Below the pieces are notes generated by a model. It did not search any database, was not told the origin of the DNA, and was given only the letters and a program-made list of their open reading frames with translations. From IMG/VR virus record IMGVR_UViG_3300033067_000531: a stretch of DNA of 45,158 bases; one strand, given 5' to 3'. Shown one piece after another: positions 9,055 to 45,006 of the stretch. Origin of the DNA: a virus (taxonomy: Duplodnaviria > Heunggongvirae > Uroviricota > Caudoviricetes). The position numbers were made by a program, and so were the translations under genes. Each line of letters starts with the position of its first letter. Positions within the stretch are counted from its first letter, which is position 1.

Positions 9055-10866
9055 TTATCCTTCACAAGCTATACAATCATTACCTTGAGCCAGTTGTGAC
9101 ATATCAATTTCTTTAATCACTTCACGCTCAATCTTCTTAGATACTTTATCTGCCTTGGCAAGTTTCTCACTGCGGCAGTAGTACATCGTTTTCAAACCTT
9201 TTTTCCATGCCATAAAGTGAACAGCATGAATATATTTGATGTGACTATCTGGACGGAAGAACACATTTAGACTTTGTGCTTGGTCGATATATTGTTGACG
9301 GTCAGCGGCATGTTCAATCACCCAACGTTGGTCAATTTCCATAGAAGTCTTGAATACATCTTTGGTTTCTTGGTCCATCCAGTTCAAATGTTGTACAGAC
9401 CCATCATTAGCAATAACTGATGACCAGATATCATTATATTCTTCTTCACCCTTTGGTGTCAATGGTGCACCACTTGGTGACAAGTGTTTCATAATCACCT
9501 TATCCAAATATTTGTTCTTGTTTAAAAATGCTCCTGATAGAGTGTCTTGACGATATGCATTAGCACGCCAAGGTTCAACACTAGGAGAAGTATTTCCCAA
9601 GATGATAGACGAAGAAGCATTTGGAGCAATAGCCATAAGATGACTAAAACGTTGACCAGTGCCAACAGCATCCGGAGCTTCACCCCGTTCTTTGCCAAGA
9701 GCTTGATTAGCATCATCGAGTCCCTTTCTGATATTTTTAAAGATTGAATTGTTGATAGATTTTGCCATAGCAGATTCAAATGCAACATTCTTCTTTTGCA
9801 AATATGCATGGAAACCCAAGGCACCAACACCAATAGAACGTTCTCTCATTGCCGAGAACTTAGCACGTGCAATAGTGTCTGGTGCATTATCAATAAAGTA
9901 TTGTAACACATTGTCCAACATTTCAGCTACATCACGCAAGAACAATGGATGGTCTTTCCATTCATCATATGTTTCTAGGTTGTTGGAAGACAAACAGCAC
10001 ACAGCAGTACGTTTCTCGTTAGTTGCCAAGATGATTTCAGAACACAGATTAGATTGGTGTACCTTCAAACCAAGTTTCTTTTGGAATGGAGGCAAGTGTC
10101 TATTACTTGTATCAATGAAATGTAGATATGGTTCACCTGTGTGCATACGGAGTTCCAAAATCTTTTCCCACAACATCTTCGCTGATACAACTTCACGCAC
10201 TTCACTGGATGCTGGATCAATCAACTCCCATGAATCATCTGCGTCTTTGTCCAACATACAACGTTCGATGATTTCCATGAACTTGTCTGGAATGTTGATA
10301 CCGTGGTGAAGGTTCAAACAACGCATGTTTGGATCACCAGTTGGTTTACGCATTTCTAGGAAGGTGATAATGTCAGGATGACTAATATCGAGGTAAGCAG
10401 CATAAGAGCCACGGCGAGTACGTCCTTGGCGATAAGCCAAACTAGATGCATCGTACATTTTGAGGTGAGGCATAACACCAGTCGATTTATCGTCCGCCGA
10501 ACGGATACCAAAACCGACACCAACACCACCACCAAGCATAGAAAGCCAATTAGTTTCAGAAAGATTGTCAACTAGACCCTCCGCAGTATCTTCAATAAAG
10601 TTTAAGAAGCAAGAGATTGGCATGCCTCTCTTGCTACGACCAAATGATAAGATTGGTGTGGAATAGGACAACCAATGTTTACTAGAGTAATCATACAATC
10701 TCTGAGCATGTTCAGGATTGCTACTGAATGCTTTTGATACGAAAGCAAAACGGTGTTGAGGACTTGTTTCATCCTCTTTCATGTACGATTCTTTAAGTCG
10801 TTTGATACCCAATTCATCAAACAACTTATCTCGTTCTAAATCAATTTCTATTCCAAGATATTCCAT
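9055..10866 (-). CDS. nrdA: ribonucleotide reductase class I alpha subunit (short, no ATP-cone)
   Basis: ISCF, SNLCSE, IAPNASSS, KTMYYCR, C-terminal CIACEG. Confidence 0.97.
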   Translation of the reverse strand: MEYLGIEIDLERDKLFDELGIKRLKESYMKEDETSPQHRFAFVSKAFSSNPEHAQRLYDYSSKHWLSYSTPILSFGRSKRGMPISCFLNFIEDTAEGLVDNLSETNWLSMLGGGVGVGFGIRSADDKSTGVMPHLKMYDASSLAYRQGRTRRGSYAAYLDISHPDIITFLEMRKPTGDPNMRCLNLHHGINIPDKFMEIIERCMLDKDADDSWELIDPASSEVREVVSAKMLWEKILELRMHTGEPYLHFIDTSNRHLPPFQKKLGLKVHQSNLCSEIILATNEKRTAVCCLSSNNLETYDEWKDHPLFLRDVAEMLDNVLQYFIDNAPDTIARAKFSAMRERSIGVGALGFHAYLQKKNVAFESAMAKSINNSIFKNIRKGLDDANQALGKERGEAPDAVGTGQRFSHLMAIAPNASSSIILGNTSPSVEPWRANAYRQDTLSGAFLNKNKYLDKVIMKHLSPSGAPLTPKGEEEYNDIWSSVIANDGSVQHLNWMDQETKDVFKTSMEIDQRWVIEHAADRQQYIDQAQSLNVFFRPDSHIKYIHAVHFMAWKKGLKTMYYCRSEKLAKADKVSKKIEREVIKEIDMSQLAQGNDCIACEG

Positions 10867-23478: not shown

Positions 23479-23932
23479 CGTTTTTATCCATCAAACCTAC
23501 GTAGTCTGAGCAGACACCATAACAGTTTGATGTAAATTGGTTTACGTCATCCAGTGACATATAACGTTCTGGCATAACACATACACTGTGTTCAGACAAC
23601 ATTTGTCCTGGGTATGTCCAGATATAACCTTCACTGGTTAATGTGAAACGGTCTTCTTCGTGCCAGAAGTAGTTGAATTTCTTATGTTGTTTACGTAACC
23701 ACACCAGAGCATCCAAGTTCTTTGCATGAATCCACAGAGGATTAATGGAAAGGAAAGAATAGTCAACTTTATGTGTTGGTTCATCGTGACCCAAGAAAAG
23801 TTGACCATTTTTAACCCACAAATCAACCTCACAATCATAACCTTGCCTTACGGCCTTCATAATTTGTTCTGGATGATTCTCTAATTCTTTATCTGGTCCC
23901 TGCGTTAGACCTCTGTGTGCGATGTAAATCAT
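23474..23932 (-). CDS. glycerophosphodiester phosphodiesterase-like protein
   Basis: IAHRG...EN...GYDCEVDLW...LGHD. Confidence 0.8.
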   Translation of the reverse strand: MIYIAHRGLTQGPDKELENHPEQIMKAVRQGYDCEVDLWVKNGQLFLGHDEPTHKVDYSFLSINPLWIHAKNLDALVWLRKQHKKFNYFWHEEDRFTLTSEGYIWTYPGQMLSEHSVCVMPERYMSLDDVNQFTSNCYGVCSDYVGLMDKNV

Positions 23933-24648
23933 TGATAACCGTATGTTTGTTTATGTGCATATTCACCTTTGGGTGTATGCATCAACATCTTGTCAATTGC
24001 AACTTCCTCCCAAGGGAAACTCATTCTACGGAAAAGGTGTTCTGATATGATATGTGGACACAATACGTTAGTTTCACGATAGAGTGCAGGTAACGCAGTC
24101 AACATATTTGAGAAAATAGTCATCAACCACGGATTACTGACCTGTAACATATCACCGGTACCTTGACCTAGATGGTTCCTATGTAGGATAGTATAAAACT
24201 TGTTGTTATCAAACTCTGGTAATTGATGTTTGAATACCATATCTGGCCTCATTCTAATCACCAAATCATAGTGTTTACCTGTTCTGGCAGTATAATCATT
24301 CATTAGTTCCACACCCTTGTGTAGTTTGTAGAACATGGAGATAATATTGCGTTTCACGTGAAAGTGGTTTTCATACAATTCTGCATGTTGTTCGAAACCT
24401 GCACGATAAGGTTCAAAATCTTCAAACACCATACTAACTGGTTTGTATGCTTCCTGAACTGCGGCCGTATCAATCTTAGGACTGTTGGCAACGAAACCTT
24501 CTTTACTATGTGGATCCCACCAAGCCTGTTCGTCCCATGCATGAATGAAAACGTCAGGATTCCATCTATCCAAAATCATCTCTTTGGTGTTTGGAAACAC
24601 TTGGTCCCAGCAACGCAAGTGTCCTGTCAAAATCAATGCGACTTTCAT
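23929..24648 (-). CDS. putative glycosyltransferase-like protein
   Basis: MKVALILTGHLR, DVFIHAW, YDLVIRMRPD pattern; in glycan cluster. Confidence 0.6.
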   Translation of the reverse strand: MKVALILTGHLRCWDQVFPNTKEMILDRWNPDVFIHAWDEQAWWDPHSKEGFVANSPKIDTAAVQEAYKPVSMVFEDFEPYRAGFEQHAELYENHFHVKRNIISMFYKLHKGVELMNDYTARTGKHYDLVIRMRPDMVFKHQLPEFDNNKFYTILHRNHLGQGTGDMLQVSNPWLMTIFSNMLTALPALYRETNVLCPHIISEHLFRRMSFPWEEVAIDKMLMHTPKGEYAHKQTYGYQ

Positions 24649-26012
24649 TTGTGATGGTCCAAGTAGTGATTCAAATCTTCTGGTGTTCCTAGTCCCCACA
24701 TACGGTCAATATTCTTAACACGAAACTTCTTGCCGTCAGCAATAGCTTCATTGAACACTGGACAAACATAGAACTCATTATTCACACGAATGTTCTTCTC
24801 AATCATTTGTTCTGCATACTTCACATAGTCAGAACCACGGTTCCAATAGTAAATACCCACAGTAGCGATGTTAGAAATAGGATTCTTTTCTGCCACTTCT
24901 TCAACGAAGCCATCTTGGTTGAGTTTTGCGAACGACCATTTCGGATGAGTAGATTCAAACGTAATGATACCACCGTCAATACTGTCAGCAGTAAAAGCGT
25001 ATAAACATTCATTAGAGTTCCATTCCACAAATTGGTCTGAGTTTGCCATCAATAGTGGTTCATTGTTGTTGATTAAATCCTTCGCCAGGAGTGTGGTACA
25101 TGCAGCACCCTCAGTCACACCATCAACTTGGATTATATCACATCCTGGTGCAATTAGATTCAAAACCGACTGTAAATTATACTTTTCGTAGTGTTCTTTC
25201 TGAACCAGGAAGATAAAGTGTGCATCCACGTTCAAATTATCCACAACCACCTGAATCATAGGCTTGCCATTTACATCAATTAGTGGTTTAGGGAAAGTAT
25301 AACCGGCTTGTGCGAATCTGGATCCTGCACCTGCCATAGGAATCAAAACATTCATTTTCTTATTTCTCCATGGTACTTGTTTCTTTTTAACACTATCAAA
25401 CTCTTTACAGAATTCCATAAAAGTGTCATACTTCAAATCATATGCATCTTTAACCGGATATAAGTGAGCACCAGAGTTCATGGCACCTTCTCGACCGATG
25501 TGTGAATCTTCTACAATGATTGTATCTTTAGGTAGTGCCTTTAATTTAGTCATACACTGCCAGTACATTTCAGGAAATGGTTTCGGATTAAAAACATCCT
25601 CATTACTGACAAAGTAATCCACAAATTGCATTGCGCCACATGATTGTAATGCAATCTTAACCGTTTCACGAATACTGTTTGATGCAACCGCAATTTTCCA
25701 ACCACGATTTTTCAATACACCCATAGCAAGTAACGCTTCTTTGTTGAAGTATGCATTAGGAATTAATTCGAAGGTGGCCTTTTGTTTGTCACCCCAAATT
25801 TGGTCATAATATTGAACAGGAAGACCTTTATCTTCCGTCAACATTTTCAATTTCTTGGTTGTGTTTAGACCGTCATACTTACTCAAGTGTTCTTCACGTG
25901 TGATGACATATTTTTCATCGACTTTACGTAACGCTTCGTTCAAAGAATCAAAGTGTAAATCACGTGAATCTAGTAGTACACCGTCCAAATCAAAAATAAC
26001 TAACTTGTTCAT
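24645..26012 (-). CDS. HAD phosphatase fused to sugar-phosphate nucleotidyltransferase
   Basis: FDLDGVL, KPFP, EDS; then PMAGAGSRF...PKPLI, NSDQ, AEK, LGTPEDL. Confidence 0.9.
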   Translation of the reverse strand: MNKLVIFDLDGVLLDSRDLHFDSLNEALRKVDEKYVITREEHLSKYDGLNTTKKLKMLTEDKGLPVQYYDQIWGDKQKATFELIPNAYFNKEALLAMGVLKNRGWKIAVASNSIRETVKIALQSCGAMQFVDYFVSNEDVFNPKPFPEMYWQCMTKLKALPKDTIIVEDSHIGREGAMNSGAHLYPVKDAYDLKYDTFMEFCKEFDSVKKKQVPWRNKKMNVLIPMAGAGSRFAQAGYTFPKPLIDVNGKPMIQVVVDNLNVDAHFIFLVQKEHYEKYNLQSVLNLIAPGCDIIQVDGVTEGAACTTLLAKDLINNNEPLLMANSDQFVEWNSNECLYAFTADSIDGGIITFESTHPKWSFAKLNQDGFVEEVAEKNPISNIATVGIYYWNRGSDYVKYAEQMIEKNIRVNNEFYVCPVFNEAIADGKKFRVKNIDRMWGLGTPEDLNHYLDHHK

Positions 26013-26824
26013 ACTTTATTAAATTCATTGAATAATACAAATGGATCCAGTCCTTTTTGGTGGTCTGGAATCTGATGCAACTCAAACAATTCAGGATTCA
26101 ACAAAGTCGAAATCAAGAAAAGTGTTTGGTCATCATCCACTAATTTATTAGACATTAAAATCTGGAATGATTTGTTCATCAGTTGTGACATTACACTCCA
26201 CATTTCTTTAGAAGCAACAGCCTTAGCACCCAAGATGTGAACATCGTTTGATGCAACCAAATCCTGTAATGAACGACCTTCTTGGTAGTCGTGATACTTG
26301 AACAGATGAATTTTCGTTGGATCAAAATCATATTCCCACTTCATGCTTGGTGGAATCTTTGATGCATCACGACAGTAACCAAAATCAATCCATGCAACCA
26401 TGTCATTAGACACCAGATTATTCTTGATGGCCATATCCACAAAAGTTGCTTTTAGATTGGTGACCAAAACATAGTCGGCATTCCAATATTCAGGATTCAA
26501 ACGTTGTGACTTATAAATCAAGTCTTGATATTCTTTATCTTGGTGTACCTTGACAATTTCTTCACGCACTTTGGCATATGCGCCACGTGGATCAAATTCA
26601 ACAAACTTAGTTTTGTCTTCCTTACCTGCACGTAATGGTCGCAACTTCTCAATGATATCTGGTGTGGAGAAAACAACCATTTCATTTTCTAGTTTTGCTG
26701 TATGTGAAAAACGTTCGATGTAAGTATCAACCGAACGTTCGAGATAATGGGGTAATCCCTTTTCAGGTTTCCAATCACCACGACCAATGTCATAGAATGC
26801 TGTAACGATAGTGATATTAGACAT
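26009..26824 (-). CDS. HtrL/YibB-like putative glycosyltransferase
   Basis: ITIVTAFYDIGRGDW, AWIDFGY, DDDQ. Confidence 0.75.
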   Translation of the reverse strand: MSNITIVTAFYDIGRGDWKPEKGLPHYLERSVDTYIERFSHTAKLENEMVVFSTPDIIEKLRPLRAGKEDKTKFVEFDPRGAYAKVREEIVKVHQDKEYQDLIYKSQRLNPEYWNADYVLVTNLKATFVDMAIKNNLVSNDMVAWIDFGYCRDASKIPPSMKWEYDFDPTKIHLFKYHDYQEGRSLQDLVASNDVHILGAKAVASKEMWSVMSQLMNKSFQILMSNKLVDDDQTLFLISTLLNPELFELHQIPDHQKGLDPFVLFNEFNKV

Positions 26825-39466: not shown

Positions 39467-40912
39467 TTACAACACTTTGTAACGGTCGTCCATGATGGTT
39501 TTAAGCATCACGGCTTCTGGAGTGAAGGTTTCGATATCACCCGCAAGCATTGGCTTAACCACTGCTGGAGAGAAACCAGAAACCATTGCAACACCAGACT
39601 TGTTGAACTTAACTGGAGCGTTTCCATAAGAAGCGTTCAAGTTCCAGAATACCACACGTGGCATTTCGTAACCTGCTTCTGCATACTTACGTGCAATCAT
39701 TTGGATTGCGCTTTCGTCATATTCAACACCTTGGTCGAATTGCATGTCAGACAAGATTAACAATACCTTAGGCATTTCGTCTTGTGCAACATTACCCTTA
39801 CGAGCAACTTCCAAAATCTTGTCAAATGCACGGTGCAAGTTGGTGTTAGCCACTTCGCCAGTGTTCATTTGGGCAATCTTTTGGTTGATGTTACCCTTCA
39901 AGTTAACCAATTGTGGGTTACGGCTGAAAGTCAAGAAAGTGTCCTTGAACTTACCAGTGTTCTTGTCAGCAAGGTACAATCCCAAAGAGATTGCAACGTC
40001 CAAACAAGACAACCCAGACTTTGAACCATGTCCGCCAGCAGCGCAGGTCATAGAACCAGAGGAGTCAACCAATGGTAGAATGTCTGCATCACCAACGTAG
40101 TTTGGCAAAGCGTCCCATTGTGCTTGGATCAAGTCCAATTCGGTCTTGTCCCAATTCATTGAACGACCATATCCAGTAGAGATACGACCCTTCAATACAT
40201 CGTAAGGGAAAACTGCCGAAGCGTTTACCTTTACTTCAACTGAACGTTCAGCCACTGGCTTCACTAATTCAGCAACGTATTGTGCATACAATGGAGTGTT
40301 GCGGTTGAAAGCCTTTTTGTAACGGGATGCCGCTACGGAAGGCACGTGTGAAAAGTTGATTGAGTTCCAATCCTTTGCACACATTTGGGTTTCAACAACC
40401 TTGGTCATTTCAACCAAGGACTTACGATAGAACTTTGGTGACATTCCGAAGAACGCACGGATTTCTGCCGCAACTTTACCCTTGCGTGGAGTCCACTTTG
40501 CTGCCAAACCATTACGTTCACGCAGCGCATCACCTAACATGGTGTATGCATGAGACTTCATCACATCAGTGTTGAAAACGAAGATATCGTCCCAACGACC
40601 TAATTCTGGCACTTTAGCCAATAGAGCCTTACAGGCTTCTACATCAGTTTTTTCCAAATAACGAAGGATGTTACGGAAAGTTTCACGTTCACCAGCACCA
40701 CCACGAACGTCACGTACCCATGCAGCAACACGTAATGCTAAAGCACGGTCTTGAACGAACGCAGCAACAAAAGCTGGAGTGATATCTTTACCACGGGAGG
40801 CACCGATATTGTAGAACAAATCCACAACTGCATTAGAAGTGGACTTTAAAGCCTTCATACCGTTAGTGGTACGAGCTTCTTGGTTAACAACGGCATTTAC
40901 AAAAGTGTTCAT
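39467..40912 (-). CDS. Ro60/TROVE-like protein (DUF2828-type) with C-terminal vWA domain
   Basis: RDVRGGAGER, GRWDD, AAKWTPR, VPSVA, MIDAS DSSGSM, LSDMQFD, VFWNL; GAAGGA RBS before ATG 40912 (481 aa). Confidence 0.8.
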   Translation of the reverse strand: MNTFVNAVVNQEARTTNGMKALKSTSNAVVDLFYNIGASRGKDITPAFVAAFVQDRALALRVAAWVRDVRGGAGERETFRNILRYLEKTDVEACKALLAKVPELGRWDDIFVFNTDVMKSHAYTMLGDALRERNGLAAKWTPRKGKVAAEIRAFFGMSPKFYRKSLVEMTKVVETQMCAKDWNSINFSHVPSVAASRYKKAFNRNTPLYAQYVAELVKPVAERSVEVKVNASAVFPYDVLKGRISTGYGRSMNWDKTELDLIQAQWDALPNYVGDADILPLVDSSGSMTCAAGGHGSKSGLSCLDVAISLGLYLADKNTGKFKDTFLTFSRNPQLVNLKGNINQKIAQMNTGEVANTNLHRAFDKILEVARKGNVAQDEMPKVLLILSDMQFDQGVEYDESAIQMIARKYAEAGYEMPRVVFWNLNASYGNAPVKFNKSGVAMVSGFSPAVVKPMLAGDIETFTPEAVMLKTIMDDRYKVL

Positions 40913-40934
40913 AATTAAATTTCCTTCAAAAAAC

Positions 40935-41129
40935 TGGATGATTGGAGAACGTAACTTATTTTCTGGTCGCCTCCTGGTTATCTCCACGACCCTATTCAGT
41001 AATCGCCACTGAAACCGATTCCATATTCAACGGACACTATTTGATATTCTATCAACACTATACCATATTTCAGGTCTTTCGTAGTATCAGAGTTTCCTCT
41101 GTTTGTTAATTTTCTGCTGAATTCATCCA
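40935..41129 (-). ncRNA. scaffold RNA copy A (195 nt, multi-hairpin cargo)
   Basis: TGGATGA-ATT-CAGCA...TCATCCA-GTTTTT. Confidence 0.65.
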
Positions 41130-41139
41130 TTAAAACAAC

Positions 41140-41303
41140 AGGTAAGCTTCCTACTTTTTGTTTACAGTGAGAATATCGAAACTCACCTCTCTGAACTTAT
41201 TTCAGTAGTAGACTTCAACGCACTCGGTCACGACTCCGTGCTCCATCTATCGCTACCATAAGGACTCAGAACGACAGTTATTAATTGCTGCTGTAACTTA
41301 CCT
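41140..41303 (-). ncRNA. scaffold RNA copy B (164 nt)
   Basis: AGGTAAG-TTA-CAGCA...CTTACCT-GTTGTTT. Confidence 0.65.
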
Positions 41304-41337
41304 AAAAACTTATTCAATGTTTCATAACAAAGATGTT

Positions 41338-41390
41338 ATTATATCATTAAAAACTTGTAGAGTCAATAGTCATGTTGCAGGATTGCAACA
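41338..41390 (-). promoter_or_regulatory. sigma70-type promoter with upstream palindrome, reading into RNAs B and A and the Ro60-like gene
   Basis: TTGACT-N17-TATAAT with TGn (41338-41366); TGTTGCA-ggat-TGCAACA at 41373-41390. Confidence 0.85.
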
Positions 41391-41397
41391 TATTTTT

Positions 41398-41471
41398 TGG
41401 TGCCCCATGAGAGAATCGAACTCCCATCCTCGGATTACAAAACCGATGTTCTGCCATTTAACTAATGGGGC
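41398..41471 (-). tRNA. tRNA-Thr(TGT)
   Basis: Cloverleaf, TT-TGT-AA, CCA. Confidence 0.93.
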
Positions 41472-41479
41472 AAAAAATT

Positions 41480-41553
41480 TGGAGCGGGTACCGAGAATCG
41501 AACTCGGAAATAAACCTTGGCAAGGTTTCAGGTTACCTTTACATCATACCCGC
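41480..41553 (-). tRNA. tRNA-Gly(GCC)
   Basis: Cloverleaf, TT-GCC-AA, U73, CCA. Confidence 0.93.
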
Positions 41554-41562
41554 ATATAACTT

Positions 41563-41591
41563 ATTATATATCAAAAATAATCTCTTGGCAA
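41563..41591 (-). promoter_or_regulatory. sigma70-type promoter within the tRNA array
   Basis: TTGCCA-N17-TATAAT, AT-rich upstream. Confidence 0.75.
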
Positions 41592-41621
41592 CAGCCTTTT
41601 TAAAATTATTTTTGGTATATT

Positions 41622-41707
41622 TGGTACGGCCACCCGGACTTGAACCGGGACGCACTAAGGCGGGAGATTTTAAGTCTCCTGTGTACTACCAATTTCACCA
41701 TGGCCGC
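41622..41707 (-). tRNA. tRNA-Leu(TAA)
   Basis: Long variable arm, CT-TAA-AA, CCA. Confidence 0.93.
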
Positions 41708-41712
41708 ATATC

Positions 41713-41787
41713 TGGTCCGGCGTAGAGGAATCGAACCTCTATCAGAAGGGTAGAAGCCTACTGTATTATCCATTATACTAACGCCAG
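41713..41787 (-). tRNA. tRNA-Arg(TCT)
   Basis: Cloverleaf, CT-TCT-AC, CCA. Confidence 0.9.
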
Positions 41788-41793
41788 ATTGTT

Positions 41794-41870
41794 TGGTGCC
41801 CTCTGTGAGATTCGAACTCACACTGTATGGCTTCTAAGACCATCGCCTCTACCAATTGCGCTAAGAGGGC
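41794..41870 (-). tRNA. tRNA-Leu(TAG), short variable loop
   Basis: CT-TAG-AA loop, A73, CCA, 77 nt. Confidence 0.88.
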
Positions 41871-41977
41871 ATAAATATTTTACATGAAAAAAGACAACGA
41901 TTACTATCTTAAAGAACTGTGGCAAATTGCACAACAGTATCCTTATATAGAAACCAAATTCTCTACAACAACTAAGG

Positions 41978-42006
41978 ATTATACACCATCCTACCCTAAA
42001 AGGCAA
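41978..42006 (-). promoter_or_regulatory. sigma70-type promoter within the tRNA array
   Basis: TTGCCT-N17-TATAAT. Confidence 0.65.
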
Positions 42007-42039
42007 GAGCTAGAATTTAAACCTTTAGTATTAAAAAAG

Positions 42040-42113
42040 TGGTGCTCTCGCCGAGAATCAAACTCGGGTAACATCCGTACCAAGGATGTGTAATGTCACT
42101 ATACGACAAGAGC
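42040..42113 (-). tRNA. tRNA-Thr(GGT)
   Basis: TT-GGT-AC loop; T-loop TTTGATT; CCA. Confidence 0.88.
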
Positions 42114-42119
42114 AATAAC

Positions 42120-42223
42120 AGGATGCAGTGCTAAAGACCGGGACTCGAACCCAATGCACACCCCCAGCGGGCCGGCCTGCCGAAGTTTTGGAGGCAGTTG
42201 TTTTATGTTGCAGTATTCATCCT
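42120..42223 (-). ncRNA. scaffold RNA copy C (GC-rich cargo with T-arm)
   Basis: AGGATGA-ATA-CTGCAA...GGG-TTCGAGT-CCC...CATCCT-GTTATT. Confidence 0.6.
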
Positions 42224-42231
42224 TAAAAGGG

Positions 42232-42376
42232 TTCCGAACGACCAACTATCTTTCTCAAGGACTCATTGGCTTGTCTCGTATAGGAGAGTTTAACTACCTT
42301 GTGTTGCTACTGGTGTGTCAGTCTCAAGAATAGGGACCTAGCGCACAAGGGACTCAATCCAAACGTCTAGTTCGAA
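42232..42376 (-). ncRNA. putative structured RNA of unknown class
   Basis: Ends pair (CGAAC-TA-GAC/GTC-GTTCG); internal CTTGTG/CACAAG helix; no ORF. Confidence 0.45.
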
Positions 42377-42380
42377 ATTT

Positions 42381-42455
42381 TGGTGGGTCATCAGAGAATC
42401 AAACTCTGTTCTTCCGGTTAAGAGCCGGTTGCTTCATCACTTAAGCTTATAACCC
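42381..42455 (-). tRNA. tRNA-Lys(CTT)
   Basis: CT-CTT-AA loop; T-loop TTTGATT; CCA. Confidence 0.9.
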
Positions 42456-42533
42456 ATATAGAAACACACTAGCTTGCAAGACTACTATTAACCCCACGGG
42501 TACGCCGCTGTTAATAGTCAGTGTGTTTTTATA

Positions 42534-42610
42534 TGGTGCCCACGGCGAGATTCGAACTCGCACTGTACAGGTTTTGAATCTGTTGCCTCTACCAATTGCG
42601 CTACGGGGGC
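42534..42610 (-). tRNA. tRNA-Leu(CAA), short variable loop
   Basis: TT-CAA-AA loop; body paralogous to tRNA-Leu(TAG). Confidence 0.88.
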
Positions 42611-42620
42611 ATAAAATAAC

Positions 42621-42732
42621 AGGATACCTTTTTCGTTGCTCTACCAATTGAGCTAATCTTCCATCAGAAAGATACAGGAATCGAACCTGCGACACACGGC
42701 TTTGAATGCTATGTAGTTGCTGCAAGTATCCT
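42621..42732 (-). ncRNA. scaffold RNA copy D: YrlA-like RNA with circularly permuted tRNA domain
   Basis: AGGATAC-TTG-CAGCAA...T arm, loop-closed 7-bp acceptor stem, D arm...GTATCCT-GTTATTT. Confidence 0.8.
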
Positions 42733-42741
42733 TAAAATAAC

Positions 42742-42839
42742 AGGTTAGTTTTTTTGCAGTGGGAATTGAACCCACAAGGTTTCATTAAAAGTGAAATTGC
42801 CAACCATTGGCGTTGCTTGATTTTTGCTGAACCTAACCT
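42742..42839 (-). ncRNA. scaffold RNA copy E: tRNA-Lys(TTT)-like cargo without CCA
   Basis: AGGTTAG-GTT-CAGCAA...D-like arm, TTTCA-CTTTTAA-TGAAA, GTGGG-TTCAATT-CCCAC...CTAACCT-GTTATTT. Confidence 0.75.
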
Positions 42840-42844
42840 TTAAC

Positions 42845-42920
42845 TGGTGCCACAAACTGGACTCGAACCAGTAACACATGGATTTTCAATCCACCGCTCT
42901 ACCATTGGAGCTACTGCGGC
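42845..42920 (-). tRNA. tRNA-Phe(GAA)
   Basis: Cloverleaf, TT-GAA-AA, CCA. Confidence 0.93.
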
Positions 42921-42930
42921 ATAAAATAAA

Positions 42931-43098
42931 TTTGTAAGTAGTTCCGCCTCGTCCATTCGGAACCATTTCGGTTGGTGTACGTTCAACTTAGAGGTACGTA
43001 GTAATAGATGTTACTTGCCAGTTGCCATGTTGTCGGACTCGAACCGTTAGCTCACAAAGTTTTCGAGGCTTTGCTTTCACATCATCTACACTTACAAA
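42931..43098 (-). ncRNA. putative structured RNA with 9-bp terminal stem and T-loop
   Basis: TTTGTAAGT...ACTTACAAA ends; internal CGG-TTCGAGT-CCG. Confidence 0.55.
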
Positions 43099-43101
43099 AC
43101 T

Positions 43102-43175
43102 TGGTACCTCGTGAAAGAATCGAACTTTCTTATCCCACTTGTAAGGAGGGTGTTCTACCATTAAACTAACGAGGC
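43102..43175 (-). tRNA. tRNA-Val(TAC)
   Basis: CT-TAC-AA loop, CCA. Confidence 0.9.
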
Positions 43176-43188
43176 ATAAAATTTACTT

Positions 43189-43263
43189 TGGGCAGGAATA
43201 CCAGGATCGAACTGGTGATAACGGAATCACAACCCGTGGTTTTACCACTAAACTAATTCCTGC
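43189..43263 (-). tRNA. tRNA-His(GTG)
   Basis: TT-GTG-AT loop; G-1:C73; CCA. Confidence 0.92.
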
Positions 43264-43313
43264 CCAAAGTAAACTTTGGAATTTTCAACCGTGTTTATTC
43301 ACGGGGGTCTGTA

Positions 43314-43802
43314 TTATACACCAAGTGCTTCTTGTTCGGCAAGAATCCGTTTCAAACGGTCAGCACAGAACGAAGCAGCAGGTGCATCAGGTTTAACCAT
43401 AGGTGTCATGTTACATGTACCTTTGATATAACCGATAGCTTGTTGCACAACGCATGAAGAACCATGTAGGTCGGATTTGTTCAAGTCCAAATGAACTTCA
43501 ACGTGTCTATCTTCTAATACGTCCTGCATTTCCTGGAACAATTCTGATACCTTGTAAACTTCGGTCATCAGTCTCATTGCAGGTTTGCTTTTCTTGTGGT
43601 CATAGTCAATTTCACGTTGAACATAACCGAAAATCTTACAACCATGGCGGCCATTGATATGAACAACGACAGCCAAAGCATAATCGGCATACCAGACACC
43701 GTTTACTCTGATACGTTCAGAGTCGGCACCAAGGTAAACCTTTGTATCTGAACCTTGGTTCAAGATAAAATCTTTAACTTCTTGAATGTCGAATTTACTC
43801 AT
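43314..43802 (-). CDS. RNase H-like YkuK/DUF458-family protein
   Basis: VYLGADS, AVVVH...G, RLMTEV, EVHLDLN, KPDAPAASFCADR; AAGGTG RBS. Confidence 0.8.
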   Translation of the reverse strand: MSKFDIQEVKDFILNQGSDTKVYLGADSERIRVNGVWYADYALAVVVHINGRHGCKIFGYVQREIDYDHKKSKPAMRLMTEVYKVSELFQEMQDVLEDRHVEVHLDLNKSDLHGSSCVVQQAIGYIKGTCNMTPMVKPDAPAASFCADRLKRILAEQEALGV

Positions 43803-43824
43803 ATCAATCACCTTTCTATAAAAA

Positions 43825-43898
43825 TGGCACCTCGTGAGAGAATCGAACTCCCGCAAACGGACTTGGAAACCGTTGTGCTACCATTACACTAACGAGGC
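43825..43898 (-). tRNA. tRNA-Trp(CCA)
   Basis: TT-CCA-AG loop, G73, U31.U39 mismatch. Confidence 0.8.
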
Positions 43899-43909
43899 AT
43901 ATAAACAAC

Positions 43910-43970
43910 AGGATAATTTTTGCGTTTTCAATTACAAGTTGAATGCTTTTTGATTTGCTGAACTTATCCT
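43910..43970 (-). ncRNA. scaffold RNA copy F: lone Thr(TGT) anticodon stem-loop cargo
   Basis: AGGATAA-GTT-CAGCAA...TTCAA-CTTGTAA-TTGAA...TTATCCT-GTTGTTT. Confidence 0.7.
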
Positions 43971-43975
43971 AAAAC

Positions 43976-44054
43976 TGGCTCCGTGTGAGGGAATCGAACC
44001 CACCTAATCATTGATTAACAGTCAAGTCCTTGCACCTTGCTTGGATTTCACGGA
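43976..44054 (-). tRNA. tRNA-Asn(GTT), atypical D arm
   Basis: CT-GTT-AA loop, G73, CCA. Confidence 0.8.
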
Positions 44055-44140
44055 ATAAAATTGTGTAAGTTCCTACTAGCACCCATCGTTACTTACAACC
44101 GTTGAGCAGCCATGCATCGAAACAAGACTGCTATTTGCTC

Positions 44141-44214
44141 TGGTACCCCCAACAAGAATTGAACTTGTGATAATCGCTTATCAAGCGAACGTTATACCAT
44201 TTAACTATAGGGGC
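44141..44214 (-). tRNA. tRNA-Ile(GAT)
   Basis: TT-GAT-AA loop, CCA. Confidence 0.9.
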
Positions 44215-44222
44215 ATAAATTT

Positions 44223-44297
44223 TGGAGGGCAATAAGAGAATCAAACTCCTATTTCAAGGTTCGTAGCCTCGTGTATTATTCATTATACGAATTGCCC
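44223..44297 (-). tRNA. tRNA-Arg(ACG)
   Basis: CT-ACG-AA loop; T-loop TTTGATT; CCA. Confidence 0.88.
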
Positions 44298-44303
44298 ATA
44301 AAT

Positions 44304-44379
44304 TGGTAGTTCAGGTGAGACTCAAACTCACGATAGACACCGTATGAAGGTGTTGCATTAGTCGCTATGCTACTGAACC
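44304..44379 (-). tRNA. tRNA(CAT), elongator Met or Ile2
   Basis: TT-CAT-AC loop; T-loop TTTGAGT; CCA. Confidence 0.82.
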
Positions 44380-44507
44380 ATTTTAGAAACACTCTGCCGA
44401 GTCCTTGAATCTCATGTTGACCCTACTTCCTGGCAACTTTTACCCTTATATCCGGATTCAAGGTTACTCGATGTGCTCCAGTGTAGTCAATCAAAGTGTT
44501 TTTAAAA

Positions 44508-44582
44508 TGGTGGAGGCCGAGGGAATTGAACCCTTCTAGACACGATCCTTGCAAGGGAACGCCGTAGCCCACTACTGCCCCC
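44508..44582 (-). tRNA. tRNA-Ala(TGC), atypical minimal D arm
   Basis: CT-TGC-AA loop, G3.U70, A73; D arm GTAG-TGGG-CTAC. Confidence 0.75.
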
Positions 44583-44706
44583 ATTTTATCAAAACACAAA
44601 GGCAATACTAGGACGCTACTTGCGTTGAGTCCGTTCAAACCTATGTGCTTCAAAAAAATAACTGATTATTTGTCTCATTATACGCCATCAGTTACGGCGA
44701 GGCTCA

Positions 44707-44780
44707 TGGTCAGGGTAGCAGGAATCGAACCTGCGCTACAAGAGTCCAAGACTCGGCGACTACCATTATCATATACCCTG
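44707..44780 (-). tRNA. tRNA-Pro(TGG)
   Basis: CT-TGG-AC loop, C1-G72, A73. Confidence 0.78.
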
Positions 44781-44785
44781 AAAAA

Positions 44786-44861
44786 TGGTCTCCATAGAAG
44801 GATTTGAACCTTCACCACATGCTCCCAAAGCATGGACGCTACCAGGTTACGCCATACGGAG
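44786..44861 (-). tRNA. tRNA-Pro(TGG)
   Basis: CATGC-TTTGGGA-GCATG, C1-G72, A73. Confidence 0.9.
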
Positions 44862-44870
44862 ATAAACAAC

Positions 44871-44925
44871 AGGATACGCTTTTTTTCAACCAATAGAAAA
44901 GTTTTGAAATTGCTGAATGTATCCT
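44871..44925 (-). ncRNA. scaffold RNA copy G (minimal, 55 nt)
   Basis: AGGATAC-ATT-CAGCAA...GTATCCT-GTTGTTT. Confidence 0.7.
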
Positions 44926-44931
44926 AAAACT

Positions 44932-45006
44932 TGGCTCCCCAGACACGGATCGAACGTGTGACCAAACGATTAACAGTCGTTTGCTCTACCTCTGAGCTAC
45001 TGGGGA
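44932..45006 (-). tRNA. tRNA-Asn(GTT)
   Basis: Cloverleaf, CT-GTT-AA, G73, CCA. Confidence 0.93.

Follow-up and report, generated by a model that had tools for sequence, protein, structure and literature searches.

The closest described relatives of the system considered here are the Ro60 and Rsr proteins with their Y RNAs, in which a ring-shaped protein with a vWA domain binds a modular RNA that combines a terminal stem and protein-binding handle with a second, effector module. The genes for these RNAs adjoin that of the protein, within a few kilobases and on the same strand; the Salmonella rsr-yrlBA-rtcBA operon is a comparable arrangement, and the RtcB/RtcA RNA repair operon is reportedly regulated by damaged tRNAs. 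The principle is well known, phages included, as the Ro60 of Thermus phage phiLo exemplifies (PMC12135203), and a GNCGAA(N)G motif close to Y RNA's 5' end has been defined as the site to which Rsr binds (Chen et al., 2014, PMC4201824). These features of protein, RNA and gene order have counterparts in a 45,158-nucleotide (nt) stretch of DNA from a Caudoviricetes virus (IMG/VR record IMGVR_UViG_3300033067_000531; the whole stretch is called the window below), in which a gene for a 481-amino-acid (aa) protein of the DUF2828/DUF7788 families is accompanied by seven small elements built on one frame. We think it probable that these elements belong to a small-RNA family, with a common handle and cargos resembling parts of tRNAs, that is paired with a Ro60-fold ring protein as a ribonucleoprotein (RNP) of the Ro/Y type. 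It is apparently a real and widespread variant of the Ro/Y principle, with a different protein branch, a different handle and an RNA family that both appear to be undescribed.

All seven elements lie on the minus strand, and a script run on the window reproduced every position and every terminal heptamer that had been given in a preliminary description made from the sequence alone. In 7/7 elements a 3-nt spacer and the word CAGCA (CTGCA in element C) come after the 5' arm and a GTT(G/A/T)TT trailer after the 3' arm, and the terminal stem that the two arms form has 7/7 pairs in six elements and 6/7 in C. Written as RNA, the spacer and word of the seven elements read N-U-W-CAGCA, with a GUU-rich trailer past the 3' arm. 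Element A (40935-41129; 195 nt, 7/7 stem pairs), which reads TGGATGA-ATT-CAGCAG ... TCATCCA-GTTTTTT, stands in the 5' leader of the gene, and element B (41140-41303; 164 nt, 7/7 stem pairs) carries a conserved structured cargo. Element C (42120-42223; 104 nt) holds a T-loop-like hairpin, element D (42621-42732; 112 nt) a module of the YrlA type and element E (42742-42839; 98 nt) the body of a tRNA lacking its acceptor stem, whereas elements F (43910-43970; 61 nt) and G (44871-44925; 55 nt) are minimal handle RNAs, F enclosing a 5-bp stem with the 7-nt loop CUUGUAA, which resembles an anticodon stem-loop with the "anticodon" UGU. The proposed order of promoter, elements B and A, ribosome-binding site (RBS) and gene was also recovered, with a sigma-70-like promoter (TTGACT-17-TATAAT, 41366..41338, minus strand) upstream of B, A and the gene, and the RBS and ATG of the gene coming after A; the promoter call is a consensus match only (11/12 consensus positions, with a TG extension).

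The seven elements are far beyond chance. A loose pattern, which asks for CWGCA and a 7-bp stem of any sequence, matches about 7 times per strand per 45 kb as background, and a stricter pattern yields 7 matches on the minus strand of the window and 0 on the plus strand. Across 74 related IMG/VR loci with protein homologues at 66-93% identity, the stricter pattern matches 203 times on the gene strand vs once on the opposite strand. At least one copy is present in 69/74 of these loci, most often directly upstream of the gene, and of the five loci without a copy, three include essentially no sequence upstream of the gene. The unique copies in these relatives (n = 163) have 24 different 5' heptamers, share the CTGCA variant of element C in 8 cases and cluster at lengths of 50-69, 90-129, and 140-220 nt. 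A covariance model built from 45 minimal copies (R1) was run on both strands of 717,520 bases and gave 160 matches at E <= 0.001, every one of them on the gene strand and together drawn from 66 related sources; within the window it scores G at 74.3 bits, F at 79.9, E at 34.9 and C at 19.3 (E 0.16). All 18 R1 matches in four complete or near-complete IMG/VR relatives (166-177 kb) fall within approximately 6 kb upstream of the gene and on its strand, and R1 has no match elsewhere in those four genomes.

The covariation of the terminal stem, claimed from seven copies alone, holds in the larger R1 alignment, where 99.9% of cells pair, 6/7 pairs show compensatory changes and 225 double-change cells are counted vs 53 +/- 5.6 in shuffles; this alignment was fitted to the model and is hence tilted toward structure, but the margin is very large. 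Sliding the stem partners by one to three columns cuts pairing to 35-49%. A stem that reaches into the 3-nt spacer was also considered and rejected: spacer position 2 could pair in 151/163 copies but does so without covariation, for which reason spacer pairing is not counted as helix, and positions 1 and 3 could pair in 44/163 and 81/163, respectively.

The gene itself (39467..40912, minus strand) sits at the end of a tRNA array and encodes a protein with DUF2828 and DUF7788/vWA regions, which hmmscan against Pfam recognizes at 8e-44 (DUF7788) and 7e-20 (DUF2828), with a weak VWA match, and which matches PHROG 850, an "RNA-binding protein" family, at 9e-132. An AlphaFold model on 35 diverse homologues (predicted local distance difference test, pLDDT, 87; predicted template modeling score, pTM, 0.86) was compared with known structures. 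The best 12 Foldseek matches are all Ro60/TROVE proteins aligned over their full length (~520-580 columns, E 4e-9 to 5e-7), among them Xenopus and human Ro60, Deinococcus Rsr, and the Thermus phage phiLo Ro60, and the matches that follow these 12 are vWA domains alone at E > 1e-3. Likewise, the best 10 chains by VIA-align are all Ro60/TROVE, with Xenopus Ro60 (1yvp_A) at Z 21.3 and a root-mean-square deviation of 3.9 A over 412 residues (model range 7-462), while vWA-only chains stay at Z <= 11.8. Residues D283, S285, S287, T357, and D389 are invariant among the 35 homologues, and we take them to be the MIDAS (metal ion-dependent adhesion site) motif, with its DxSxS...T...D pattern. By its predicted structure the 481-aa protein is a diverged full-length Ro60 fold, with a HEAT-repeat ring and a vWA domain, and the Ro60-like ring supposed at the outset is present in the model.

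The protein family is very large. A profile-free search returned 6,024 representative clusters at E <= 0.001, homologues are encoded in 701 isolated phage genomes, and DUF2828/DUF7788 members also occur in bacteria, fungi, plants, and clusters from giant viruses. The "Ro-like" label is not new and is already present in annotations, some of the phage homologues being called "Ro-like RNA binding protein" or "RNA-binding protein" and several plant DUF2828 proteins carrying the UniRef name "TROVE domain-containing." Some members are long; in a 905-aa metagenomic protein (P0152), DUF2828 and DUF7788 are naturally fused to a domain of the 2'-5' RNA ligase superfamily (PF13563), and other long forms carry zf-CCHC or SAM_PNT domains (P0154, P0156, and P0157).

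The same pairing of protein and RNA recurs across phyla, in many unrelated phages and bacteria. In phages of Synechococcus, Staphylococcus, and Campylobacter, R1 already finds copies that adjoin the gene and share its strand. Searching by pattern and by eye places four elements of the form AGACCNN-(U/A)UA-CAGCAA ... NNGGUCU-GG in the tRNA array just downstream of the gene in Felix O1, three elements within 340 nt upstream of the gene in Listeria phage LP-048, two at the 3' end of the gene in Mycobacterium phage Aegeus, and four in tandem upstream of the gene in Enterococcus phage PEf771. Elements next to the gene are placed in Vibrio phage QD01 as well, and the four of Felix O1 occupy approximately positions 23,870-24,705 of NC_005282. 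Read by eye, one Felix O1 element (9427-9551 of the extracted locus L075) has a T arm, a hairpin, and a D arm, and two of the PEf771 elements contain YrlA-type modules. In PEf771 (L081, 4128-4960) a conserved repeat of some 50 nt, GGTTTTG..CATAG.T.C.ACC....GG..GCC.GA.CATA, stands before each of the tandem handle RNAs and may be a promoter or a processing signal.

A second covariance model (R2), built from 25 copies of seven phage lineages, was applied to sequences outside its training set. It detects four copies just upstream of the gene in Vibrio phage PhiImVa-1 and further copies near the gene in Pseudoalteromonas phage J2-1 and Mycobacterium phage DirkDirk, and all 13 matches at E <= 1 in that search lie on the gene strand. 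Neither R1 nor R2 has a match within +/- 6 kb of the gene in the T4-like or jumbo phages QD01 (Vibrio), GAP32 (Cronobacter), and AsFcp_4; searches of the whole genomes found one match approximately 7 kb upstream of the gene in QD01, two in AsFcp_4 that share the strand of the gene and lie at 3 kb, and five clustered at 306-312 kb in GAP32, whose gene is at 106 kb. Over whole genomes of phages with the gene, matches were found in 8/8, of which three had supplied training sequences and five were independent. In 80 loci from bacterial genomes and archaeal metagenome-assembled genomes, with homologues at 32-60% identity, R2 gives 38 matches at E <= 0.01, of which 36 are on the gene strand, spread over 31 loci and mostly placed about 50-500 nt from the start codon or right after the stop. 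The only two minus-strand matches (L130, 7572-7814) are directly upstream of a partial gene match (residues 128-478), and they may reflect a local inversion or rearrangement.

Six control phages (T4, T5, phiKZ, SPO1, CcrColossus, and Bxz1) have neither a DUF7788 match (0/6) nor an R2 match at E <= 0.01 (0/6) in their whole genomes. The tRNA arrays of T4 and T5 are large and contain annotated stable RNAs, and CcrColossus and Bxz1 carry a canonical Ro60 with a Pfam TROVE (PF05731) match, which is not found anywhere in the Felix O1 genome. Since these arrays and these TROVE phages are without the handle, the handle tracks the DUF2828/DUF7788 branch, and not tRNA arrays or Ro60 in general. A search with a covariance model made from the copies had been proposed as a check, and the motif is indeed found in distant phages and in bacteria, following the gene in 8/8 genomes with it and 0/6 without it.

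What the handle encloses is variable, and tRNA-like parts are frequent within it, as the preliminary description had noted. Element D aligns to Rfam YrlA at 39.7 bits over model positions 23-87 (42632-42698), a stretch that comprises a T arm, a short hairpin, and a D arm. Element E scores 32.3 bits as a tRNA at 42755-42816 with the acceptor positions deleted; it has a D arm, an anticodon arm with the loop CUUUUAA, and a T arm, and linkers of 19 and 10 nt separate this body from the stem. T-loop-like GTTCRANYC words occur in C, D, and E, and the minimal elements of 55-61 nt are without D or T arms. Among elements of 80 nt or less (n = 69), 49 have a 5-bp stem with a 7-nt loop vs a mean of 6.2 in shuffled interiors, and in 35/69, element F among them, the loop has the Y-U-NNN-R form that marks anticodon loops, a result that shuffles give 0.3 times on average and three times at most. 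Minimum free energy folding of the minimal elements was set aside as noisy in AT-rich sequence, and the explicit hairpin test with shuffles was used instead. An anticodon-stem-loop-like hairpin is also present in 17 of 44 cross-phylum matches, with UUU the commonest triplet (five). The inserts had been called unrelated to each other, which does not hold for the B-type cargo: this is a structured RNA conserved across relatives, with compensatory changes at 10/22 predicted pairs in an alignment of 14 copies.

None of the seven elements reaches the gathering score of any family in Rfam 15, which was the proposed check of novelty. YrlA (RF02553), whose gathering score is 69 bits, comes no closer than 39.7 bits for element D and 37.7 for a related locus (L050). 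The resemblance to YrlA lies in the T-arm/D-arm module of element D, and the minimal elements are without such a module. With respect to Y RNAs in general the differences are larger, as the handle here is a stem with UUACAGCAA and CUGU whereas that of Y RNA is a bulged helix with GNCGAA/CGAA, and the genome here has many RNAs (seven) of several cargo types whereas Y RNAs number one or two. The expectation that the handle would not fit the Rsr site was borne out, the regular expression G.CGAA finding no match in any of the seven elements (0/7). The small stable RNAs among the tRNA genes of T4 (rnaC and rnaD) and T5 (RNAI, RNAIII, RNA1, and RNA2, among others), some of them annotated as tRNA-like, are similar in their position; however, those genomes have no DUF7788 gene or R2 match, and their RNAs fall outside the handle family. 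The handle RNA family, its modular cargos, its distribution, and the likeness described next were not found in Rfam 15 or in the literature searched, most subscription journals and bioRxiv supplements lying outside that search.

The best Rfam match of the minimal elements is the Dictyostelium Class I RNA (RF01414), at 30.5 bits over the full model length for element G, 15.3 bits for F, and 32.5 bits for a relative (L050, 4297-4353), below the gathering score of 41.5 in each case; the elements of Felix O1 and Listeria have no Class I match at E <= 1. As described by Kjellin et al. (2021, PMC7919456), Class I RNAs measure some 60 nt and start with an invariant G; they have a short covarying stem, a single-stranded motif of 11 nt adjoining its 5' arm, a variable interior, and a transcribed 3' CUGU whose C pairs with the 5' G, and the same source places a Dictyostelium upstream sequence element (DUSE) promoter about 60 nt upstream, reports the RNAs as unique to Dictyostelia, and leaves their function unresolved. 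The preprint version of that study names the RRM protein Rnp1A/CIBP as the direct binder, and its pull-down yielded GuaB, NdkC, and the uncharacterized DDB_G0281243 beside CIBP/Rnp1A. The likeness to the phage elements covers several features, with the word agreeing in part: both are approximately 55-60 nt long with a 5' G, a short covarying stem joining the ends, a variable interior, and a single-stranded word right after the 5' arm, (U)U(A/U)CAGCAA in phages, and stem, UUACAGCAA, and a 3' C-U-G(-U) are shared. The Rfam Class I consensus can be written G-stem-CCUUACAGCAAU ... A-rich ... stem-CUG, beside which element G reads GGAUAC-AUU-CAGCAAUU ... AAAAAAAGC-GUAUCC-UG. Of the Class I word in the Rfam consensus, CCUUACAGCAA, the phage consensus keeps U-W-CAGCAA and differs in the first two or three positions; UUACAGCAA is exact in the Felix O1 elements, and the commonest words among the 44 cross-phylum matches are UACAGCAA (16) and AACAGCAA (9). 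The 3' arm ends in CC followed by U-G-U-U in 163/163 unique elements, a count in which the GTT was part of the search pattern, and R2 matches of other phyla end in CUGU, CUUGU, or CCCGU.

That the CAGCAA-handle RNAs of phages and bacteria and the Class I RNAs form one class, to which the DUF2828/DUF7788 branch of the Ro60 fold is the cognate binding partner, we regard as speculative and on balance unlikely. Class I genes are eukaryotic, nuclear, and polymerase-driven, with a DUSE promoter, whereas the phage DNA has sigma-70-like promoters. For a dictyostelid DUF2828 protein, homologue searches returned fungi and plants only, and a cluster search returned giant-virus, fungal, plant, and phage members, which does not show absence; the likeness is therefore a lead, and not membership. 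If it were true, Class I RNAs would be Y-RNA analogues and the DUF2828 proteins their ring-shaped partner, so that two orphans would explain each other, and the phage scaffold would display mimics of the anticodon stem-loop and the tRNA elbow to disarm or recruit tRNA-directed host enzymes. Even as a lead, it can be tested on the long-unexplained Class I RNAs and on the DUF2828 proteins of plants and fungi.

The analysis itself establishes the RNA family with its covariation, its bias of strand and position, its pairing with the gene across phyla, the Ro60 fold, and the tRNA-like cargos. In the Ro/Y-type reading that we favor, the seven elements would be small non-coding RNA genes, co-transcribed with the phage tRNAs and the neighboring gene. 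Their handle consists of the 7-bp stem that closes the ends, a single-stranded (U/A)(A/U)CAGCAA after the 5' arm, an A-rich stretch ahead of the 3' arm, and a terminal 3' tail of the C-U-G-U type; the stem, the CAGCAA word, and the CUGU end would form the docking site of the ring protein. Because Ro60 binds Y RNA, we infer by analogy that the 481-aa protein binds this handle, which we consider rather likely. The cargos in the window are two minimal hairpins (one like an anticodon stem-loop), a tRNA body lacking the acceptor stem, an "elbow" of T arm and D arm as in YrlA, an RNA with a T-loop hairpin, and two larger folds, and one protein would be loaded with this whole panel of tRNA-mimic modules. 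Such a system would extend the Ro/Y principle to a second protein branch, with a different handle and a panel of tRNA-part mimics in each genome, and it would give a very large orphan protein family a concrete and searchable RNA partner. Among the carriers of the gene are phages of the Felix O1 type that infect E. coli K-12, and P100 and A511, two phages used in Listeria biocontrol.

Several other explanations need to be weighed. The handle could act in cis, as a leader that lets the protein autoregulate its mRNA, with the dispersed copies decayed or secondary. One or two copies do stand between promoter and RBS in the window, and the position directly upstream of the gene that is usual among the related loci is also common in bacteria; however, phages of Mycobacterium and Staphylococcus have copies downstream of the gene, others lie kilobases away among tRNAs and, in GAP32, about 200 kb away, and the dispersed copies retain perfect covarying stems and organized cargos. 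We therefore hold a purely cis-acting role to be improbable, and autoregulation as such fits the RNP model, which it does not exclude. Slightly less probable still is that the elements are processing or insulator cassettes that punctuate polycistronic tRNA transcripts, their stem and U-rich flanks being RNase sites and their link to the gene arising only because the gene tends to sit in tRNA arrays. The spacing is suggestive, with a tRNA, another element, or an RBS 6-11 nt after every element of the window and U-rich tracts flanking them, and many copies are interspersed with tRNAs in relatives, Felix O1 and Vibrio QD01 among them. The elements are nonetheless missing from the large tRNA arrays of T4 and T5, and elements accompany the gene with no annotated tRNA nearby in the Mycobacterium phages Aegeus and DirkDirk, Campylobacter phage CP30A, and Synechococcus phage BUCT-ZZ01; moreover, a spacer needs neither a conserved CAGCAA word nor conserved structured cargos.

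It is very improbable that the elements are odd tRNA genes or pseudogenes (permuted, split, or insertion-bearing) with the terminal stem as acceptor stem, giving rise to functional or vestigial tRNAs with no dedicated protein. The stem has the 7-bp length of an acceptor stem, E scores 32 bits as a tRNA and D and C have T-arm-like hairpins, but the minimal elements at 55-61 nt have no D or T arms, none of the seven elements encodes CCA or a discriminator context, the tRNA body of E lacks its acceptor positions and is set off by linkers, and neither the conserved CAGCAA word nor the link to the gene would be explained. Miniature mobile elements spreading in tRNA arrays would account for inverted termini, multiple copies per genome, and variable inserts, but they are scarcely credible here, as the termini vary (24 heptamers) and yet stay complementary by covariation, which marks an RNA helix rather than a site for a transposase, the bias to one strand is absolute (160/160 R1 matches), and no target-site duplication is seen by eye in the window sequence.

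As to what a Ro/Y-type RNP of this kind might do, it would present tRNA look-alikes to tRNA-directed host factors. In a decoy version the RNAs would be protected decoys for anticodon nucleases, and in an adaptor version they would tether tRNA-directed factors, or RNA-repair and decay enzymes, to the ring. A decoy or adaptor role toward tRNA-directed host enzymes is a tentative proposal, which we prefer to other functions because of the cargo types, the tallies of mimic anticodons, and RNA-repair neighborhoods. Reported targets of the PARIS nuclease AriB are tRNA-Lys(UUU) and tRNA-Thr(UGU), with tRNA-Asn(GUU) cleaved secondarily, and T5 is reported to counter it with tRNA variants of its own (PMC12409363); the mimic "anticodons" UGU and UUU, the commonest, and also GUU coincide with these reported targets. 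The T5 anti-PARIS tRNAs and the present elements are, in our reading, alike as products of phage tRNA arrays that face anticodon-directed host nucleases, but the former are complete functional replacements whereas the latter are incomplete mimics fused to a protein handle. The "stable RNAs between phage tRNA genes" would thereby gain a testable role in how phages cope with tRNA-cleaving defenses. As with Ro60/Rsr, RtcB and RNA-ligase genes are found nearby in some phages with the DUF2828 gene: in Listeria LP-048 the gene is followed by genes for an HD phosphohydrolase, RtcB, a "tRNA amidotransferase," and an RNA ligase, and in GAP32 an RNA ligase gene lies directly upstream (L085, 4504-5769) and a CCA-adding/2',3'-cyclic phosphodiesterase gene 4 kb downstream (L085, 11396-12511). 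The RNA ligase-superfamily fusion in P0152 belongs to the same RNA-repair context.

The study of Listeria phage CKA15 touches on both partners. Purified virions were found to contain the homologue CKA15_055, detected by 20 peptides that covered 57% of it (PMC12282133), although this protein is encoded outside the structural module, and it is possible that the protein or the RNP is packaged and enters the cell with the virion. The authors speculated in 2025, without defining them, that abundant non-coding RNAs nearby might be Y RNAs; they could not identify the most-read region (26,236-26,727), and coordinates for the other two abundant regions are not given in that text (PMC12282133).

A number of findings weigh against the Ro/Y-type reading. 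The 481-aa protein has no Pfam TROVE (PF05731) match at E <= 0.01 by hmmscan and, unlike Ro60/Rsr, falls in Pfam DUF2828/DUF7788; phmmer found nothing in the PDB, and a profile search of the PDB reached the Ro60 vWA domain only marginally (E 0.12-0.85), and it is because these sequence searches were at best marginal that a fold search was needed. As the handle is without the GNCGAA Rsr site, the Ro/Y analogy rests on fold and gene order. In GAP32 roughly 200 kb separate the handle RNAs from the gene. No R2 match at E <= 0.01 was found in 49/80 bacterial loci, and the training sequences of both R1 and R2 were first chosen by a pattern of our own. RtcB is absent from four of four complete relatives, and an RNA-repair operon is therefore not a constant companion. 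The mimic "anticodons" of the 35 loops (UGU 12, UUU 7, GGA 5, UCU 3, UGA 3, GUU 2, and three singletons) are tallies of related sequences and not of independent events, in an AT-rich composition that favors U-rich loops. By coordinate transfer, the most-read non-coding region of CKA15 is a ROOL RNA, and not the three handle RNAs. Finally, the signs of transcription are exact contigs of the gene in one freshwater metatranscriptome and, in the same RNA library, a contig about 95% identical that spans 40803-41177 (the start of the gene and element A), evidence at contig level that is weak, as ends are not shown and DNA is a possible source; several bins of the array are without cover in the same metatranscriptome, which says nothing either way. 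That discrete handle RNAs accumulate stably is inferred.

The surroundings of the locus are those of a phage tRNA array, which occupies the minus strand from 39.0 to 45.1 kb. ARAGORN predicts 20 tRNAs in the window, and elements C to G are interspersed in the array at 41398..45006 (minus strand). Rfam adds a tRNA that ARAGORN missed (42384-42455, minus strand; 50 bits, loop CUCUUAA by eye), and a weak tRNA-like match below threshold (24 bits) stands immediately before element F at 43979-44054 on the same strand. The ROOL match in Listeria LP-048 (L076, 4469-5020, NC_024359; 90 bits, gathering score 99.1) likewise lies in a tRNA array, approximately 1 kb upstream of the gene. By DNA, the region has no close relative among isolated phages, megablast against 50,697 phage records giving tRNA matches only, and many metagenome runs from freshwater hold near-identical DNA. 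Elsewhere in the window there are genes for a DNA polymerase, a primase, a helicase of the DnaB type, a recombinase resembling UvsX, and ribonucleotide reductase. Within the tRNA array, an open reading frame of 162 aa (43314-43802, minus strand) matches the Pfam family RNaseH_like (PF04308, 5.7e-15) and phrog_11311, and its product could be an RNA-processing enzyme for the array or the handle RNAs.

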